A DNA stretch of 19,675 bases, taken from the NCBI RefSeq assembly GCF_006345805.1, contig NW_021824117.1, positions 1 through 19,675 of the forward strand, written 5' to 3'. Below, piece after piece: positions 1,274 to 19,446 of the stretch (position 1 is the first letter of the stretch; each line of letters starts with the position of its first letter). The DNA is from Octopus sinensis (taxonomy: Eukaryota). The notes beneath the pieces were generated by a model, which made no database searches, was not told the origin of the DNA, and worked only from the letters and a program-made list of their open reading frames with translations. Made by a program: the position numbers and the translations under genes.

Positions 1274-1309
<36 letters not shown>

Positions 1310-1439
1310 CAAATAAGCAACAAGAATGTGCTTATTTTATTATAATCACCCCGCAAAATTTTTATGGATAACACATACAAAATTCTGGTGCAACTCAGTT
1401 AAGTATCATATTCATTCGAATCTAAATTTTTGCTGAATC

Positions 1440-1443
1440 ATAT

Positions 1444-1522
<79 letters not shown>

Positions 1523-1934: not shown

Positions 1935-3955
1935 TGTAACTTTGATAGGTTTCGGCCAGTATAGGCCCCAGGCCATGTCTAACTTAATAGCACCACCTGG
2001 TCAAGTCATTCAGTCACATATTGAGTACCACGTCTCACTCTAGCAAAGGGTTATTATTGTTGGAGACATACCCGGGTGTGTGAGGTTGGTCCGGGATTTT
2101 TTGAAGAAATCTGTCCAGTGAACTTTCAATTTTATGGGAACCATTTCCGTTTTGACGTATTTTGGTATGGTATTAAAGAGAGCTTTTGGTATGGTATTAA
2201 AGTAAAGTAGTTGTGACGTAATGTTGCTATGTGTCTTGAGTTCAAATTTTTGTGGTGAGCGGATACCACGGGGACCAAGTCTTGGATGGATTTTAAAATT
2301 GATGCCAACATCATTTGTGCAATATTGATGGAATATTTTCCACGTCACACAAATGGCGGTGTTGGAGAAAGTAGACGTTGAGTTTTTTAGTCAACCCCAA
2401 TAGTCAATGCCTCTCATGCCGCCTATCTTTCTTGTTATTGACCTCTGGAGTGCTTCCACTTTCATAATGAGTTGTTTCGTGTGGGGAGACCACAGTGGGC
2501 AACAGTACTCAAGGTGGGGTCGGACAAAAGTAGAGTAGAGAAGGATAATGTGGGCACCTCTAGACCGGAAAGTTCTCAGAATCCAGGAGCACATCTTGCG
2601 GGCCAAGCCAGCCTTGCTGTTTACGTGGGTCCTCCAGCTTAGATTGTTATCAACAATTACTCCAAGGTCTCTGGTGTTATTGGATGATACTATGCATATG
2701 GTAGTTTCCAAAGTGGATCAAATTAAACTTATCTTCATTTAAAAGCATATTGTTTTTTTCTTTCTATTGGACAATAGCAAACAGATCCGAAGGCATGTTC
2801 GGTCCTCCATACGGTTTATGGCTTTCTGGAGTTTGGAATCATCTGCAAAGATTTTCAATGTAGAATGTTTGATGACGTCTACTGAGTAATTGATGTAGCT
2901 AATGAAAGGGAGTGGGTCCAACACAATACCTTGTGGGACACCACTACTGACTTTGGTTAAGCTGGGTCGGATTCCCTCAAACACAACATGTTGGGTTCTG
3001 TTTGTCAGAAAACACTTTATCCACTTCAGCAGCTTTCCACGGGCTCCAATGTTGAACCGTTTCTTCAGCAGGATTTTGTGGTCCACTCTGTCAAATGCTT
3101 TGCTGAAATCAAGGTGTATGAGGTCAGTGTTGGGGCCCTCTCTCAACGCTTTTAAGATGTCATCAAAATGGTGCAGAAGCCGCGACACGCAGTCCCTGCC
3201 ATCAGGGAAACCATGCTGGTTGGGGTTCAGCAGATTGTTGTCTTCGAGGAATTGAGTTATTCGCGATCTCACCCCACTCTCAAATACTTTAATGATGTGA
3301 GAAGTGAGTGAAATGGGACGGTAGTTCACTGGAAGAGATTTGTTTCCCTTTTTGAAGACTGGAACGACAGACTGGGAAAGAAAATAATCAGGAATGTAGC
3401 CTGCATCAATTGAGCTTCTCCAGAGCTCAGTTAGAGGTGGGTGCAATTTGATGTCGATACATCTTCAGTACAGTGGCGGGGAACTCATCGGGACCTACTG
3501 CCGAGTTGTGCTTGATCTTATTTATTTCTGTTAGGATATCAGGGGCACCAAAATGTATGTCAGATATGGTTAGTTGTGGGTTCACATCACAGATATTAGC
3601 CAGATCAAACGCATTAGCGTTACTGAAAACAGAGCGGTATTGCCTCTGCAGTATCCTCGCACATGGATTTTGCATCTTCGTGTAGAGTGTTGTTCTCATG
3701 AACCAGAGGACCAACAGTGGAAGCAGTGACCTCATGTTTTGTTTTTTTTTTTTGCAAATGAAAAGAAGACTTTTGGATTGAGTTTTATTTTCTCCATGGC
3801 CCCAATTCTCCTCAGCTGCTCTTTGCTTGCTAATGATGGTCATCATGCTCTTTTGCGGGGTTGTGTCCTTTCGATTCGAGTGATGCAATGGCAGTGGAAT
3901 GGGTGCGTTGCTGCTGCAGCAGTATTTATGTTGATTGATTTTCTTGTTAATTCTA
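1933..3955 (-). mobile_element. 5'-truncated, frameshifted non-LTR retrotransposon (CR1/L2-group LINE): ORF2 reverse transcriptase plus 3' end
   Basis: Motifs across frames: IKLNPKVFFSFAK, VGPL, SAVGPDEFP, YRPISLTSHIIKVFE, QHGF, LDFSKAFDRVDH, SSGVPQG, IFADDSKL, RDLGVIVD, RPHLEYCCPLWSPH. Several frameshifts and deletions. Flanked by TA microsatellites. Confidence 0.92.
2739..3446 (-). pseudogene. LINE reverse transcriptase core fragment (235 aa open stretch)
   Basis: RT motifs LDFSKAFD, GVPQG and FADD in one frame, with frameshifts at both ends. Confidence 0.88.
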
Positions 3956-3979: not shown

Positions 3980-4035
<56 letters not shown>

Positions 4036-4061
4036 TATATATATAATTAATTAATAATAAT

Positions 4062-4314
4062 AATATTAGGGAATATATCCAAACTTACAGGGAAAAATAG
4101 ATTAGGATTAAATCCAATTTTATAGTATAATATATTATATTATATTATATTATATTAGAGATAAAACACTATTAGGCAAATCAAACAGTGAAAAATATAA
4201 GCCAATACATAAAATAATTAAAAAATATAAAAGTAAAATAAAAAAATAAAAAATAAAAATTATTTAAATAATTTAAACTTATAAATTCTATAAATTTTAT
4301 ATATATATATACAA

Positions 4315-4346
<32 letters not shown>

Positions 4347-4711
4347 ATTTTTATATTTATATATTATTTTATTTATTAATTAATTAATTAATTTAAAATT
4401 TTTTTAAAATATATATCAAAAGTATTATCTTTTATTAAACTTTTAATACTTTTGATATATATTTAAAAAAAAAAATAAATAAATTGATTAATTAATTAAA
4501 TAATATATAAATATAAAATATACATACATACATATATATATATATTTGTATATATATATAAAATTATTAAAATTTATAAGTTTAAATTATTTAAATAATT
4601 TTTTATTTTTTATTTTTACTTTTATATTTTTTAATTAATTTTATGTATTGGCTTATATTTTTCACTGTTTGATTTGCCTAATAGTGGTTTATCTCTAATC
4701 AATATAATATA

Positions 4712-4715
<4 letters not shown>
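4062..4715. repeat. Foldback of an AT-rich interspersed repeat (arms ~4140-4427 / 4444-4715, 16-nt loop), homologous to 9503-9722
   Basis: ctattaggcaaatcaaacagtgaaaaatataagccaatacataaaa is the reverse complement of 4639-4684. The same family is seen at 9560-9710. Confidence 0.85.
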
Positions 4716-5170: not shown

Positions 5171-5493
5171 TATGTTGTATGTATAATATATACTAATTTT
5201 ATACTATTGAATTCTGTGTATAATTCACTAAAAAATATTTCGTTGTTAAGTAGATATCGGCGTCTTTCAAGTTGAGTCTATATAATATACAATAATGTTA
5301 GTTAAGCATATTCAAACTGCTACCGCGCGTGACTGAGATTAGCCAAATAATGCATAAGACGTAATTGTTAGAAGTCCAAAATGCAATTACTTTCATTTTA
5401 CAATCAATCAATACACACATAATATATATATATGATATATATATATATATTATATGAATAGAGTAAAACCATATTAGGCAAATCAAACAGTGA
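4662..5493. repeat. Large inverted repeat (arms ~4662-5010 / 5161-5493) around a (TA)n spacer
   Basis: For example, tagactcaacttgaaagac (~4892) pairs with gtctttcaagttgagtcta (~5262). Arms differ mainly by small indels. Confidence 0.85.
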
Positions 5494-5839
5494 TGGACAT
5501 AATATATATATATATATAATATATATATATATATAATATATATATTATACCAAAATTTAATTTACGAAGTGGTCCATTATTCTATATTATCCATGTAAAC
5601 TAATTAAAAAAATGATAATAACAGAATCAATGACACAAGCAATAGCAGGCCAAAAATAGCCTTAAATAGCCGAGGGATTAGAATTAATCAAAGGACATAC
5701 TAAGTATGTCTACCTGCTTGAAATAACAGTCAAAGCTCTTATTAAATCGCCAAAAATACACTGATGAAAACTACAGAAATTAAACGAAGGCAAAATCAGG
5801 TTAAGACAATCTACTAACATACATTTAAGTTTCTGGACT

Positions 5840-5893
5840 CACGTGAACCGGTTTCTGCATTGGTAAAATAAGCCTTAGCTTCTTCAGCACGCG
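5840..5893 (-). ncRNA. Minimal type-I hammerhead ribozyme (left arm copy)
   Basis: Minus strand reads CGCGTG-CTGAAGA-aGC...GCa-GAAA-CCGG-TT-CACGTG. Stem III palindrome is ACCGGT. Stem II is weak. Confidence 0.68.
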
Positions 5894-5978
5894 TTACCAT
5901 GATTAGAGATTATCAACCCATCGTCTTGAAGTCTGTGCTGCAATTGATTCTGCAACTGGGAATCTCTAATCATGGTAA

Positions 5979-6032
5979 CACGTGCTGAAGAAGCTAAGGC
6001 TTATTTTGCCAGTGCAGAAACCGGTTCACGTG
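5979..6032 (+). ncRNA. Minimal type-I hammerhead ribozyme (right arm copy)
   Basis: CACGTG(5979-84)-CTGAAGA(5985-91)-aGC...GCa-GAAA(6017-20)-CCGGTT-CACGTG(6027-32). 6-bp stem I. Predicted GUU cleavage after 6026. Confidence 0.72.
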
Positions 6033-6647
6033 AGTCCAGATACTTAAATGTATGTTAGTAGATTGTCTTAACCTGATTTTGCCTTCGTTTGATTTCTGTA
6101 GTTTTCATCAGTGTATTTATGGCGATTTAATAAGAACTTTGACTGTTATTTCAAGCAGTTGAATCTTTTTACGGCAAAAGACACCATTTACAGAAACATT
6201 CAGTGTAGAAGTAATCTTTCATATTGAATATTCCTCTTTTCCTAGAGTTAGGATTTTTTTTTGAGAAAAAAAAAAGAGATTATTGTTGCAAATTGAAATA
6301 ACAAAATTCAAAAGAGCTTTTATAAATTTTCTCAGAAATAAATTTCATTCTATAGAAATGAAACTAACCAAAGCTAAACTTTACGATGATTCTGATAACA
6401 TTTGGTGTCATATCTAAACAGCAAAACACGATTTCTGTTCTGGTGATTTTAATACGATATATTATACGAACCAATGCTGTAATCTCTTAAAAGACAAAAT
6501 TCATGCAAATATCTGAATTTCTGTATGTTTGTATTATTTTACGACCAGCGGTTGCGACGATCTATTTGTTATATTTGACAAGCCATAAATGACTGCCACT
6601 GTTAAATAAATTAGCTTTTGAATAAAAAAAAAAACTGAAGTGTATTT

Positions 6648-8094: not shown

Positions 8095-9407
8095 ATATAT
8101 TTGCGTCAATATGTCTGAAGAATATTAAAAATTAAAAAAAAATTTTTTTTTTTCTTACAATGACATAATTTAGAAGAAAGACCGGTTTCGCGTTCAGCTT
8201 TTCAAATTTCTTGCGACGTTATGCTTATCTTGAACAGTTATCTTTATGTTTATGTTTAAAAGAGTTCTAAATAAGGGGAGGTAATGAGTGATTTCTTCCG
8301 GTGTAAGGGAGATAATCGCTTAAAATTGTTTTTTAATTTTTTTCCTTTCCCTTGGTGTAAATTTCTCTGTATCAGTATGTTGGCATGTACTTTTCAATGA
8401 AGAATGTTTCCTTGTTTAGTCTAATTTGTGTTGATGATCCGATAGCACATTGGTAAAATGGAAAGATTAAAAATTGTGGTAGTAATTGCTTTGCGCATTT
8501 CTCAATGTGCTCGCTAAAAGGTATCATTCTGTATTCTGGGAATGCAATCTGTTGTCGATGCAGTGTGCATCTACGTCTGAGTGATAGTCCCGTGGATCCC
8601 ACGTAGTCTTGGTGGCAGCCCGAGCATTTATGACATAAATTATGTTTTCAGAGGCACAAGTAAAGTTAGATTGATCTTGAATTTCTGTCCCTCTTTTAAA
8701 GAGGAATTCTGATCCTTCTAGCAGGTTGGACAGTTGCACAGTTCGATCTACCACATTTTTTTACTTTTGCATTCGTAATTTCAGAAAACAATTGTGCCTT
8801 TGTGAGAATCTTTTTAAGTGATTTAGGTTGTTTGTTTAGCTTTTAATGATTTGGTGTATGTTTAGAATTCCTTTAATTTGGGGTCCTTATGAAGTATTGG
8901 TAAATTCTGGGTGATGATGGTGAAGGCTTCTTTGTTTTGAGGTTGTATGTAGATATGTAAGGTAGTATTTTCGGGGAAGGTGTGTTGTGGTTGAACTTTC
9001 TTAAAGTTTCTATGTTGATTTCTGTTGCACGTCTGATCCCATCCTCTATGAGTTGAGCTGGGTAATGTCTGTCAGTTAGGGTGTTTTTGAGTTCTTGCAG
9101 TCTAAAGTTCCTGGTATTTTGTTCTGACACTATTGTGCATATCCTTCTTGCAAGGTTGAAGGAGATGTTTGTTTTAGTGTGTCTTGGGTGGCATGAATTA
9201 AAAAGAAGGTATTGTTTGGCGGTCTGTGGCTTTGTAAAAAATGTCTGTTTCTATTTTAAGTTTAATTTTTTAATTAGTATATCCAAGAACGGGAGCTCCT
9301 TTTGGTTGTATTCCATTGTGAACTGTATATTTGGGTTTATGCTGTTCAATAGGTTTTTAAATTTTAGGAGTTTATCTGTGTTTTCATTCCAGAGTATAAA
9401 ACAATTG
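8095..9407 (-). mobile_element. 5'-truncated Penelope-like element: RT C-terminus/thumb, GIY-YIG endonuclease and 3' UTR
   Basis: Minus-strand translations: CFILWNE, NPNIQFTME, ELPFLDILI, QYLLFNSCHPRHTKTNI, LARRICTIVS, RHYP, FTCASENIIYVI...DYVGSTGLSLRRRCTLH, RLNKETFFIEKY. Frameshifted. Confidence 0.92.
8174..8212 (-). ncRNA. Hammerhead-like motif with U3-A8 core in the PLE 3' UTR
   Basis: Minus strand reads AAGAAAt-TTGAAAA-GC-tgaac-GC-GAAA-CCGG-TC-TTTCTT. It lies ~160 bp 3' of the GIY-YIG stop on the same strand. Stem I needs a 1-nt bulge. Confidence 0.6.
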
Positions 9408-9722
9408 ATTAAACCTTCGCCAAGTTAAATATATAAACCACCTGAAGAATGACTGTAACTCGAAAATTTTAAGAATTGAACAGCCATGAAACGATCGTAG
9501 TGTAATATTAATTATCTTTTTTAATAATTTTGATATATATTTAAATAATATAAGTTAATTAATCTTATGTATTGGCTTAAGTTTTTCATCGTATGATTTG
9601 CCTAATAGTGGTTTTATCTCTAATTTAATATAATATAATATTTTACTATAAAATTGGATTCAATCCTAAATCTGATTTTTCCCTATAAGTTTGGATTTAT
9701 TCCCTAATATTTTCTTATTAAT
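9408..9722 (+). mobile_element. Non-coding HHR-bearing interspersed repeat (solo PLE pseudo-LTR or retrozyme-like)
   Basis: Contains the HHR at 9439-9502. Its downstream part is homologous to 4062-4215 (reverse) and 4441-4715. Ends in (TA)n. Confidence 0.6.
9439..9502 (+). ncRNA. Minimal type-I hammerhead ribozyme, intact core
   Basis: CAC-CTGAAGA(9442-48)-ATGACTGT...ACAGCCAT-GAAA(9488-91)-CGATCG-TA-GTG. Stem II has 7/8 pairs, stem III palindrome is ACGATCGT, and predicted GUA cleavage is after 9499. Confidence 0.82.
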
Positions 9723-9793
9723 TTATATATGTATATATATATACATATGCATGTTGCACACATGCATAGAACACACACACACATATAATTGTA

Positions 9794-10469
9794 TGAAAAT
9801 CTTTGCAGATGATTCCAAACTCTAGAAAGCCATAAACGGCATGAGAGACCAAACATGCCATCAGTCAGATCCATTTGCTATTGTCCAATGGATGGAAAGA
9901 AACAATATGCTTTTAAATGAAGATAAGTTTAATTTGATCCACTTTGGGAAAGAGGATACTCTGAAATGACCATATGCTCTTTCCCTCGGGCGACTCCCTA
10001 GTGTCATCCAACAACACCAGAGATCTTGGAGTAATTGTTGATAACAATCTAAGCTGGAGGACCCACGTAAACAGCAAGGTTGGCTTGACCTGCAAGATGT
10101 GCTCCTGGATTCTGAGAACTTTTCAGTCTAGAGATGCCTACACCATCATCCTTCTCTACTCTACTTTTGCCCGACCCCACATTGAGTACTTTTGCCCACT
10201 GTGCCCCCCCCCATACGAAGCAACTCATTGTGAAAGTAGAAGCACTCCTGAGGTCAATAACAAGAAAGATAGACGGCATGAGAGGCATTGACTATTGGGG
10301 TCGACTAAAAAAACGCAACGTCTACTTTCTCCAACACCGCCAGGAGCGCTACATCAATTGTGTGACGTGGAAAATATTCCATCAATATTGCACAAATGAT
10401 GTTGGCATCAATTTTAAAATCCATCCAAGACTTGGTCCCCGTGCTATCCGCCCACTACAAAAATCGAAC
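9794..10469 (+). mobile_element. Second, doubly truncated copy of the CR1/L2-group LINE at 1933-3955 (opposite orientation)
   Basis: Runs from KIFADDSKL to HPRLGPR and closely matches the reverse complement of ~2240-2857. Confidence 0.92.
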
Positions 10470-16220: not shown

Positions 16221-16592
16221 GGAACGTGGAAGCACTCCGTCGGTTACGACGATGAGGGTTCCGGTTGATCCGAATCAACGGAACAGCCTGCTCGTGAAAT
16301 TAACTCCACAGACACGTGCACCCTTAACGTAGTTCTCGGGGATATTCAGCGTGACACAGAGAGTGACAAGGCCGGCCCTTTGAAATACAGGTACAACAGA
16401 AACAGTAAGTAAGAGTGAGAGAAAGTTGTGGTGAAAGAGTAGAGCAGGGATCACCACCACCCCCTGCCGGAGCCTCGTGGAGCTTTTAGGTGTTTTCGCT
16501 CAATAAACACTCACAACGCCCGGTCTGGGAATCGAAACCGCGATCCTATGACCGCGAGTCCGCTGCCCTAACCACTGGGCCATTGCGCCTCC
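16221..16592 (-). mobile_element. tRNA-derived SINE, apparently near full length
   Basis: Minus 5' end reads GGAGGCGCAATGGCCCAGTGGTTAGGGCAGCGGACTCGCGGTCATAGGATCGCGGTTTCGATTCCCAGACC. A box is TGGCCCAGTGG and B-box-like motif is GGTTTCGATTCC. A ~300-bp tRNA-unrelated body follows, ending at (CATA)n. Confidence 0.88.
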
Positions 16593-16758: not shown

Positions 16759-16824
16759 GAGGCGCAATGACCCAGTGGTTAGGGCAGCGGACTCGCGGTT
16801 GTAGGATCGCGGTTTCGATTCCCA
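16759..16824 (+). mobile_element. tRNA-like head only of the same SINE family, head-to-head with 16221-16592
   Basis: Reverse complement of ~16526-16591 with about 3 substitutions. It stops right after the B box. Confidence 0.88.
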
Positions 16825-17470
16825 AAAACAGGAAAATAGCATTCAGCCAACACATAGACATTTGCGCCAATAACAAAAATGCAAGCTTCAGAATTGTTCC
16901 CCTCTACCAATTGAGGGACGATACAACCTGTAGCCAACGAATTAGTAAAGAGCCTCTCATTATTACGAAATACAGACCCTTTTTGAACACGTCTACAACA
17001 AGCGACATATCCACCACGGCCTTAGAATAACACAAACACACACACAAATATTAAAAAATGATACACTCAAGAGATCCCCAATCACTGCTATAATCCATAA
17101 CGAGTCACTTTTAGGTCACTTGACCATTTAATATCCTACTACTATCATACTACCTACATTCCTTCTTATTCTCCATTCTCTTTCTTCTTCTTCTTCTTCT
17201 TCTTCTTCTTCTTCTTCCCTACCAAGAATTCACAACGACCTCGAACCCACAAGAGAGACAGAGACAGGCAGAGACAGGCAGAGACAAGTAAAATGCCCCT
17301 TGTATTTGAATACTCTGCAAATATTCTTTAAAAAAACTTTTCTTTCAATTTTTCCAAAATTCAATTGTTTTCTATACTTGCAGTTGAAAAAGTCTCAATG
17401 ACTGAAACCGGTACTGAAATGTTTTTTATAAAATAATTTTAGCATTTTCTACATTGATTCTTTTCCAAAT
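16825..17470 (+). mobile_element. Penelope-like element 3' fragment (GIY-YIG C-terminus and 3' UTR)
   Basis: RKIAFSQHIDICA...FRIVPLYQL...QRISKEPLIITKYRPFLN aligns with RMIPFSEHIEKCA...FLIFPFYQC...IRLNKETFFIEKYMP at 8372-8602. Confidence 0.82.
17378..17419 (+). ncRNA. Minimal type-I hammerhead ribozyme with compensatory U3-A8 core
   Basis: ttgCAG-TTGAAAA(17384-90)-AGTC-tcaat-GACT-GAAA(17404-07)-CCGG-TA-CTGaaa. All three stems pair. Predicted GUA cleavage after 17413. Confidence 0.78.
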
Positions 17471-18337: not shown

Positions 18338-18574
18338 ACACTACATACATATATATATAATTATATAATTATATTTATACATATATAATTATATAAATAT
18401 ATATACACATGTATATTTATATATATACATACATATAAATATATATACACATATATATTTATTATATAACTGACCAAACTCTCACCCATCAATTTCAGTC
18501 AAATTTATTTAATATATACTTAAACTATCTCAATACTACATTAATAATATTTTTAAAAATATCATTTATGTAGT

Positions 18575-18606
<32 letters not shown>

Positions 18607-18625
18607 CAACAAGAATGGATTAAAA

Positions 18626-18712
18626 TCTCGGTACAATTGTTTCGTACGAGGACATCTTTAATAAGCTACAAAAATGCAGTAAATATAGCTGGCTCGTACT
18701 CGTCAGCCGAAA
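18626..18712 (-). ncRNA. Type-I hammerhead ribozyme, intact (left arm)
   Basis: Minus strand reads TTTCGG-CTGACGA-GTACGAG...CTCGTAC-GAAA-CAATTG-TA-CCGAGA. Confidence 0.88.
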
Positions 18713-19172
18713 AAACATCAGAGATTCCCAAACATCAAAAGGGGTAGATACAAATGAGGGTGTAAGTTTAACTGCATTTGTACCCAAAATTTCTTCACAT
18801 AACTTGATTAATAATTCACTATGAACTATATGGACATGCACATATTCTGTAAGTTCAAGACTTTTCATCGGATCTCCAGGAATCGAACTTCTCTGTGATT
18901 CTTGTAAATTTCAATAACAATCTGTTCTTCTACACGATATGACAGTCACTTTGCTTCTTACTCGGATTCTCAGAAATTTCGCATGACTGTATCCAAAATT
19001 TCTTCACATAACTTGATTAACAATTCACTATGAGCTATATATGGACATGAACAAATTCTGTAAGTTCAAGACCTTTCATCGGATCTCCAGGAATCGAACT
19101 TTCTTCAATGCAGTTAAACTTACACCCTTATTTGTATCTACCCCTTTTGATGTTTGGGAATCTCTTATGTTT

Positions 19173-19260
19173 TTTCGGCTGACGAGTACGAGCCATCTAT
19201 ATTTACTGCATTTTTTGTAGCTTATTAAAGATGTCCTCGTACGAAACAATTGTACCGAGA
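19173..19260 (+). ncRNA. Type-I hammerhead ribozyme, intact (right arm)
   Basis: TTTCGG-CTGACGA(19179-85)-GTACGAG/CTCGTAC (7-bp stem II)-GAAA(19243-46)-CAATTG-TA-CCGAGA. Stem III palindrome is ACAATTGT. Predicted GUA cleavage after 19254. Confidence 0.9.
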
Positions 19261-19411
19261 TTTTAATCCATTCTTGTTGCTTTTTCCTATTTGTAATCAC
19301 CCCACTTGTCGTATGGTTAACACCATATAGATTTCCGGTGCATCCTAGTTAAGGAGCATATTCATGTGAATTCATTAGAATTCACTTGAATCTCAATTAC
19401 TTAAACCGAGT

Positions 19412-19446
<35 letters not shown>

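Follow-up and report, generated by a model that had tools for sequence, protein, structure and literature searches.

The inverted pair of hammerhead-bearing arms near the right end of the window (the window being the whole stretch analysed, 19,675 nucleotides from Octopus sinensis) is very probably part of one truncated insertion (18601-19410), in which the enzyme of a Penelope-like element (PLE) placed unequal copies of one RNA end back to back within an (AT)n run. It is most likely an ordinary PLE insertion scar, not a purpose-built ribozyme cassette. The feature is real and of a known kind of element, and the family member itself is new. A sequence-only reading had proposed a minimal PLE product with an inverted pseudo-LTR as one possibility, and the one-sided tail, the (AT)n target and the variable inversion breakpoints support it. 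The parts of the insertion and of a smaller relative in the window are these.

18576-18600, no strand: (AT)n run that forms the left half of the target site (repeat scan)
18601-18778, minus strand: inverted, 5'-truncated pLTR-like end, the 178-bp left arm, without the tail (alignment)
18626-18712, minus strand: left type I hammerhead motif, core starting at 18706, predicted cut 18632/18631 (motif scan, z -1.9)
18779-18890, plus strand: repeat X, the 5' end of the direct piece, with the inversion joint at 18778/18779 (alignment)
18891-18987, plus strand: segment Y, which with X makes up the 209-bp period (other family copies also have X next to Y and Y next to X')
18988-19106, plus strand: repeat X' (93% to X), which runs into the right arm (alignment)
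19107-19285, plus strand: direct pLTR-like segment, the right arm (alignment, contigs)
19173-19260, plus strand: right type I hammerhead motif, predicted cut 19254/19255 (motif scan, z -3.9), with stem I at 19173-19178/19255-19260, core at 19179-19185, stem II at 19186-19192/19236-19242 and palindromic stem III at 19246-19253
19286-19410, plus strand: one-sided 125-bp tail with two hairpins, same repeat family (contigs bridging 19285/6, z -4.15)
19411-19446, no strand: (TA)n run that forms the right half of the target site (repeat scan)
1308-1446, plus strand: older family member with the same layout in miniature, without ribozyme, between (TA)n runs (alignment)

The arms are near-identical inverted copies. 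The left arm (18601-18778) and the reverse complement of the right arm (19107-19285) are identical at 175 of 178 positions; the alignment has 3 mismatches and 1 gap. It scores 302 bits, and no inverted repeat in 20 block-shuffled windows exceeded 67 bits. With both motifs pointing outward, this bears out the earlier description of inverted arms of ~178 bp, each carrying an outward hammerhead. The arms diverge at four places, and the left arm, unlike the right, agrees with the commonest letter of public runs at 19129 and 19166.

The insertion is longer than the arms and their spacer. The span given before, 18601 to 19285, was right at its left end and too short at its right, where a 125-bp tail had been overlooked and the insertion reaches 19410. 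The full unit lies inside an (AT)n run and is made up of a 178-bp inverted piece and a 632-bp direct piece, the latter terminating in the one-sided, structured tail (folding z of -4.15 for 19286-19410). The 5' end of the direct copy is immediately preceded by an inverted, 5'-truncated one, the tail (family sequence) is at one end only, and (TA)n or AT-rich DNA forms both flanks of this insertion and both flanks of the miniature copy. No target-site duplication is visible, and a TA duplication would be indistinguishable inside (TA)n. Within the spacer is a direct repeat, absent from the earlier reading, of 112-114 bp and 93% identity (18779-18890 and 18988-19101). The ribozyme-bearing direct segment is single, with no partial tandem of two direct pLTRs; lacking a second direct pLTR, the copy is not a complete element, as expected of a stump.

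Three smaller observations concern the same region. Segment Y carries a 39-bp local duplication at 18925-18963, a subfamily mark found in contigs of two runs (depth 307 and 404). The five bases just past the predicted cut (19255-19259) are the same as the last five of the tail (19406-19410), by chance or as an alternative stem I partner. Beyond the left (AT)n run, 18470-18555 is a different abundant repeat, whose upstream continuation is common to all four runs analysed.

Both arms carry a type I hammerhead motif of the dimer type, with a conserved core, three stems and a palindromic stem III. Each has a stem I of 6 bp, a basal stem II of 7 bp that encloses a further-foldable insert of 42-43 nt and, instead of a stable stem III, an 8-nt palindrome. 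With a relaxed motif scan, the window has three matches, of which the third is at 9442; 200 block shuffles had none. Searches with Rfam gave no hammerhead match in the whole window at E 1 or in 18601-19410 at E 10, so the call rests on our motif scan and the description of PLE hammerheads in PMC4209133. Both ribozymes had been called intact: this holds for the motif (core, stems and palindrome), and cleavage is predicted from the sequence. In the left motif a change at 18689 weakens the extension of stem II, and its folding z-score is only -1.9, compared to -3.9 for the right motif. Among 40 of 45 variant rows from four runs, none affects the core, stem I or basal stem II. The ribozyme patterns had 0 matches in metagenome contigs, viral contigs and prokaryote genomes, collections that are not expected to hold an animal repeat.

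Stem III exists in two palindromic forms. Changes at 19248 and 19251 occurred at nearly equal depth in all four runs (37-51% of depth, with identical figures in runs X2 and X15), and from these depths they appear to sit on the same contigs. Together they produce a second perfect stem III palindrome, the one that also forms stem III of the motif at 9442. For stem III, the predicted duplex energies are -6.4 and -10.0 kcal/mol when two like palindromes pair and -1.9 kcal/mol when unlike ones do. A paired change that keeps the palindrome fits selection for dimer formation in the family, and dimer formation is described for PLE hammerheads in PMC4209133.

The hammerhead motifs are likely inert at this locus. 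In the folding prediction for read-through RNA over both arms, all ribozyme stems had probabilities of 0.00 on either strand, and the earlier suggestion that a long hairpin would compete with ribozyme folding is thereby borne out in silico. Since the stems are predicted to give way to the long hairpin in read-through RNA, no self-cleavage is expected of such a transcript. For plus-strand RNA starting in the spacer, the predicted probabilities were 0.95-0.99 for stem II, 0.20-0.25 for stem I, which would form in part, and 0.04-0.05 for stem III. The motifs lie on opposite strands, in agreement with the earlier statement that each transcript strand would carry one sense ribozyme, and a single sense motif per strand allows no dimer within one RNA. 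That inverted Penelope regions can give rise to siRNA in Drosophila has already been reported (PMC3681739).

The repeat family is abundant in public sequencing runs. Part of 18601-19410 was contained in 20 of 24 listed runs (9 studies; four organism codes among the 24; best share of sampled words 0.49). None of the runs listed as containing it was marked as RNA, although X15 may be. Mapping was to contigs only, which carry no information on strand, ends or editing, at 85% likeness, in four of the 24 runs from four studies, and what we list from it covers 32 of 2620 contig pieces, 24 of 270 loose ends and the variant rows given above. The family was high-copy in all four runs. In the three large runs, the summed depth over spacer, arms and tail was between thousands and hundreds of thousands; these sums are no copy number, and we call the family very abundant because they are far above the depth of 20-90 of many single pieces.

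The tail and the outer arm end are both properties of the family. The boundary 19285/6 was bridged, with at least 31 letters on each side, by two of the 32 listed pieces (of 2620), both of which begin in the ribozyme core and have 8 and 4 letters other than ours. The tail is thus part of the family, as these pieces connect it to the ribozyme core, and its depth was of the same order as that of the ribozyme. In run X1, 11 contigs stop at 19285 and pass into (AT)n, indicating that insertions recurrently end at this point of the arm.

The layout is not peculiar to one insertion, since the miniature copy at 1308-1446 has it too. Its inverted piece is 17 nt long (1312-1328 equals 19269-19285 at 16 of 17 positions, a match reached in 0 of 300 shuffles), and its direct piece (1329-1445) resembles 19278-19399. 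Aligned to the tail (19286-19410), 1329-1445 has 90 identities, 21 mismatches and 17 gaps, with a score of 91 against 51 for the best of 1000 shuffles. We also considered 1308-1446 as an empty target, which would make the outer 17 bp of the arms host-derived, and dropped this; 19255-19410 is contiguous family sequence in contigs.

The inversion breakpoint differs from copy to copy. Three of the four joints listed connect the antisense arm to sense sequence: 18648/19377, 18673/19219 (25 letters between) and 18726/19255. Each was seen in one contig, the three in three runs, and their short sides of 28-29 letters are below our caution limit of 30. The five inversions (this locus, the three contigs and the miniature copy) have five breakpoints. 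The check proposed earlier, for inverted pairs elsewhere, thus turned up the inverted layout in three contigs and at 1308-1446, each with its own breakpoint, and the arm-spacer-arm arrangement is not a fixed unit because other copies show different inversion breakpoints. At 18726/19255 the direct piece starts at 19255-19257, 0-2 bases from the predicted cut, and the inverted piece spans the cut; among three joints with one contig at this position, this could be chance. The joint of our locus, 18778/18779, was bridged by 0 of the 32 listed pieces (of 2620). At 19106/19107 none of the 32 did so by the 31-letter rule, and one reaches 14 letters into the arm. One contig of run X1 matches 18778-18856 without differences (depth 453), and its fit ends 1 base into the arm.

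These results bear on four other explanations of the locus. A fixed non-autonomous arm-spacer-arm(-tail) unit that moves whole, MITE-like or as a hairpin RNA, would account for the high copy number of all parts, the recurrence of X-Y and Y-X' neighbours in other copies and the lack of any coding trace, and with 32 of 2620 pieces listed a recurring joint could stay hidden. We consider such a unit very unlikely: the four other inversions have four other breakpoints, the X1 contig that is exact over the start of the spacer stops fitting 1 base into the arm, and the insertion has asymmetric ends and no visible target duplication. The proposal of a distinct unit with fixed arm-spacer-arm boundaries was therefore not upheld, the right boundary being 19410. 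A MITE or fold-back DNA transposon would have inverted repeats at both termini with fixed boundaries; here 125 bp lie beyond the right arm, and this together with the variable breakpoints argues against that identity. Tandem hammerhead units of a non-LTR retrozyme array, yielding circular RNA, share with our locus a type I hammerhead, AT-rich and non-coding sequence and, in the 209-bp period of the spacer, a tandem element, and retrozymes exist in molluscs (PMC7229834). Retrozymes are tandems of 170-400 nt units that each contain a hammerhead; the 209-bp unit has none, no tandem array was found there, and no monomer can be cut out because the two motifs are on opposite strands, so that we regard a retrozyme array as extremely improbable.

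That a plain direct insertion was inverted later, by slippage during host replication or by repair, is also highly improbable. The arms are 98% alike and the joint is spanned by a weak hairpin of 10 pairs, three of them G-T, as such an event might leave, but this hairpin is no better than chance (z -1.18). Moreover, the inverted arm ends at the second recurrent end of the family, beside (AT)n and with no flank DNA included, and the same layout recurs in other copies. An assembly artefact, either a fold-back chimera or a misjoining of repeat copies, would be compatible with the lack of a listed contig across the joint and with a best run that holds 0.49 of the sampled words. Against this stand the four differences between the arms, with the commonest letters at 19129 and 19166 in the left arm and not in the right, the asymmetric layout known from real insertions, and the other inversions in independent runs, which leave an artefact a barely credible explanation.

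The preferred reading, an insertion by a PLE enzyme, agrees with the published anatomy of PLE insertions in most respects. A typical insertion has an adjacent inverted 5'-truncated copy and a tail of 30-40 bp (PMC8557442, Craig et al. 2021), and the inverted truncated copy, one-sided tail and (TA)n bias are described in both PMC8557442 and PMC3846280 (Arkhipova et al. 2013). Our locus shares with truncated insertion units of EN+ PLEs the inverted copy, the one-sided tail, the pLTR hammerhead, the (TA)n target and the absence of a visible duplication. Unlike them, it has no ORF, no second direct pLTR and an internal 209-bp duplication upstream, and its tail of 125 bp (~115 bp in the miniature copy) is outside the published 30-40 bp, at 3-4 times that length. 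The 400 bp upstream gave no coding match to an ORF with RT and GIY-YIG, such as full-length members may have upstream of the pLTR; the copy is truncated. Because the tail length and the single direct pLTR depart from the published pattern, we filed the locus as a PLE-type insertion of an unplaced family.

The ribozymes also resemble those described for PLEs. PMC4209133 (Cervera and de la Pena 2014) reports opposite-strand hammerhead pairs with spacings of 100-700 bp, and the two cores here are 473 bp apart. As far as the description in PMC4209133 goes, shared traits are type I, the long basal helix II of 7 bp, the G10.1-C11.1 pair and the small palindromic helix III suited to dimers. The motifs here differ in having no extra base between 9 and 10.1, a helix I of 6 bp and a structured insert of 42-43 nt in helix II, and in escaping the Rfam models.

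The two ends of the copies are reminiscent of the Anolis Poseidon protein PAc, which in vitro cuts and extends both strands of AT-rich DNA (PMC11167929, Frangieh et al. 2024). According to PMC11167929, PAc starts copying at two internal RNA sites, which define the tail, mainly on uncut RNA. Our locus likewise has two copy ends downstream of the ribozyme cut, an AT-rich target, a structured tail region and copies that span the cut site, as expected of an uncut template. The ends here are 31 and 156 nt past the cut and thus 125 nt apart, and no ORF start was recognised in the tail (19286-19410), in which our locus differs from PAc. Among the results of PMC11167929 drawn on here, formation of inversions is not shown. 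Non-LTR retrozymes (PMC7229834; bioRxiv 10.64898/2026.07.22.740005) and MRC1 (PMC8557442) are, as described there, non-coding, high-copy and hammerhead-bearing like our family, which also shares with retrozymes and with non-autonomous PLEs such as MRC1 the likely mobilisation by a PLE enzyme. In contrast to retrozymes, it has no tandem of ribozyme-bearing units, and its layout is inverted with a tail.

Based on this anatomy, we infer a mechanism with two primers. The endonuclease would cut both strands of the (AT)n run. One strand would prime copying at a far start site (~19410) and be extended by 632 nt, and the other would prime at a near start site (~19285-19290) and be extended by 178 nt. 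Joining of the two copies at their 3' ends would give head-to-head arms with the tail on one side, and would explain both the layout and the variable breakpoints. The template was presumably uncut RNA because both copies read through the cut site, and the hammerheads would be passengers, built for dimers in tandem RNA. Another possible route to the inversion is self-priming on an antisense template, as proposed in PMC3846280.

A broader reading joins these points, and we think it unlikely as a whole. Here a very abundant, non-autonomous, PLE-mobilised family would record the copying mechanism: there would be two start sites 125 nt apart, each inversion would come from two RNA molecules, some RNAs would be cut by the hammerhead in vivo (because the direct piece of one contig starts at 19255-19257), and the stem III palindromes would work as dimer codes, each specific to itself, and divide the family into two.

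The template may have been non-autonomous or may have had a long untranslated end, as the sequence upstream of the ribozyme yielded no coding trace. No autonomous partner was found. The 400 bp upstream did not match any of 42 PLE proteins (best tblastn E 0.054), and three protein searches with the sense frames of 18779-19178 gave no match. With Pfam, the six frames of 18779-19178 and three frames of the tail gave one weak match below the cut-off and none at it. Stop codons in 18779-19178 numbered 4-12 per frame, with 7.9 expected.

PLEs are present in this genome, as indicated by a decayed, 5'-truncated ORF remnant with an RT thumb, a Zn-finger-like linker and GIY-YIG (8378-9412, within 8170-9430, minus strand). 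The remnant is 88% identical to protein P0001, and its named relatives are from Octopus and Mytilus. Its linker has a decayed CX4CxxC motif that is intact in P0001. In PMC8557442, this motif is a feature of the Neptune and Nematis clades and is linked to (TA)n targeting. The arm could not be aligned to the end of this ORF (the 8.2-kb PLE end).

The cassette in itself matters little because opposite-strand hammerhead pairs and inverted PLE stumps have already been published. After the PLE reading, what is left over is the 125-bp structured tail, the 209-bp period and the joint at the predicted cut. A description of the family was not found in open-licence papers, nor was a paper on Penelope inversion by twin priming, judged by title and start of abstract. 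The main text of a paper on Octopus vulgaris repeats (PMC13282606) has 'hammerhead' 0 times, and a term search of PMC12602865 gave nothing relevant. PMC11167929 and PMC8557442 leave open how inversions of PLEs arise and whether their hammerheads ever act in vivo. Numerous copies, a long tail and breakpoints that vary could make this family useful for a simple genomic test, by counting breakpoints at the cut site and recording the palindrome carried by each arm of a pair.

Other parts of the window hold further hammerhead-like motifs. With the PLE ORF remnant is a shortened hammerhead relic, near 8180-8200. At the truncated end of the ORF, and pointing away from it, is a weak hammerhead motif (9435-9505, plus strand; core at 9442, predicted cut after 9499). 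Its flanks do not align to the arm family despite the equal variant palindrome. One copy of an AT-rich repeat (9499-9748) begins at its predicted cut, and other pieces of this repeat, 73-85% alike, are at 4021-4221, 4579-4715 and 5419-5557. A second outward inverted pair, of an unrelated family, is at 5714-5911 and 5961-6158 (198 bp, 96%, 49-bp spacer). Each of its arms has a hammerhead-like motif (cores at 5985, plus strand, and 5887, minus strand) with a 6-nt palindromic stem III; the motifs are probably decayed because there is one extra base before the second core box. Comparison of the arm with these 5.7-kb arms and with the 9.4-kb motif region gave no significant likeness, and a word shared upstream of the cores was also not significant.

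The window also contains remnants of other elements. The C-terminal part of a PLE endonuclease remains at 16761-16988 (plus strand), partly overlaid by a short repeat that has an inverted copy at 16526-16591 and that we take to be SINE-like from its look. Two non-LTR retrotransposon fragments (2246-3464 and 9999-10464; Pfam RVT_1, E 7e-23) are in opposite orientation, 91-96% alike and ~7.3-8 kb apart.
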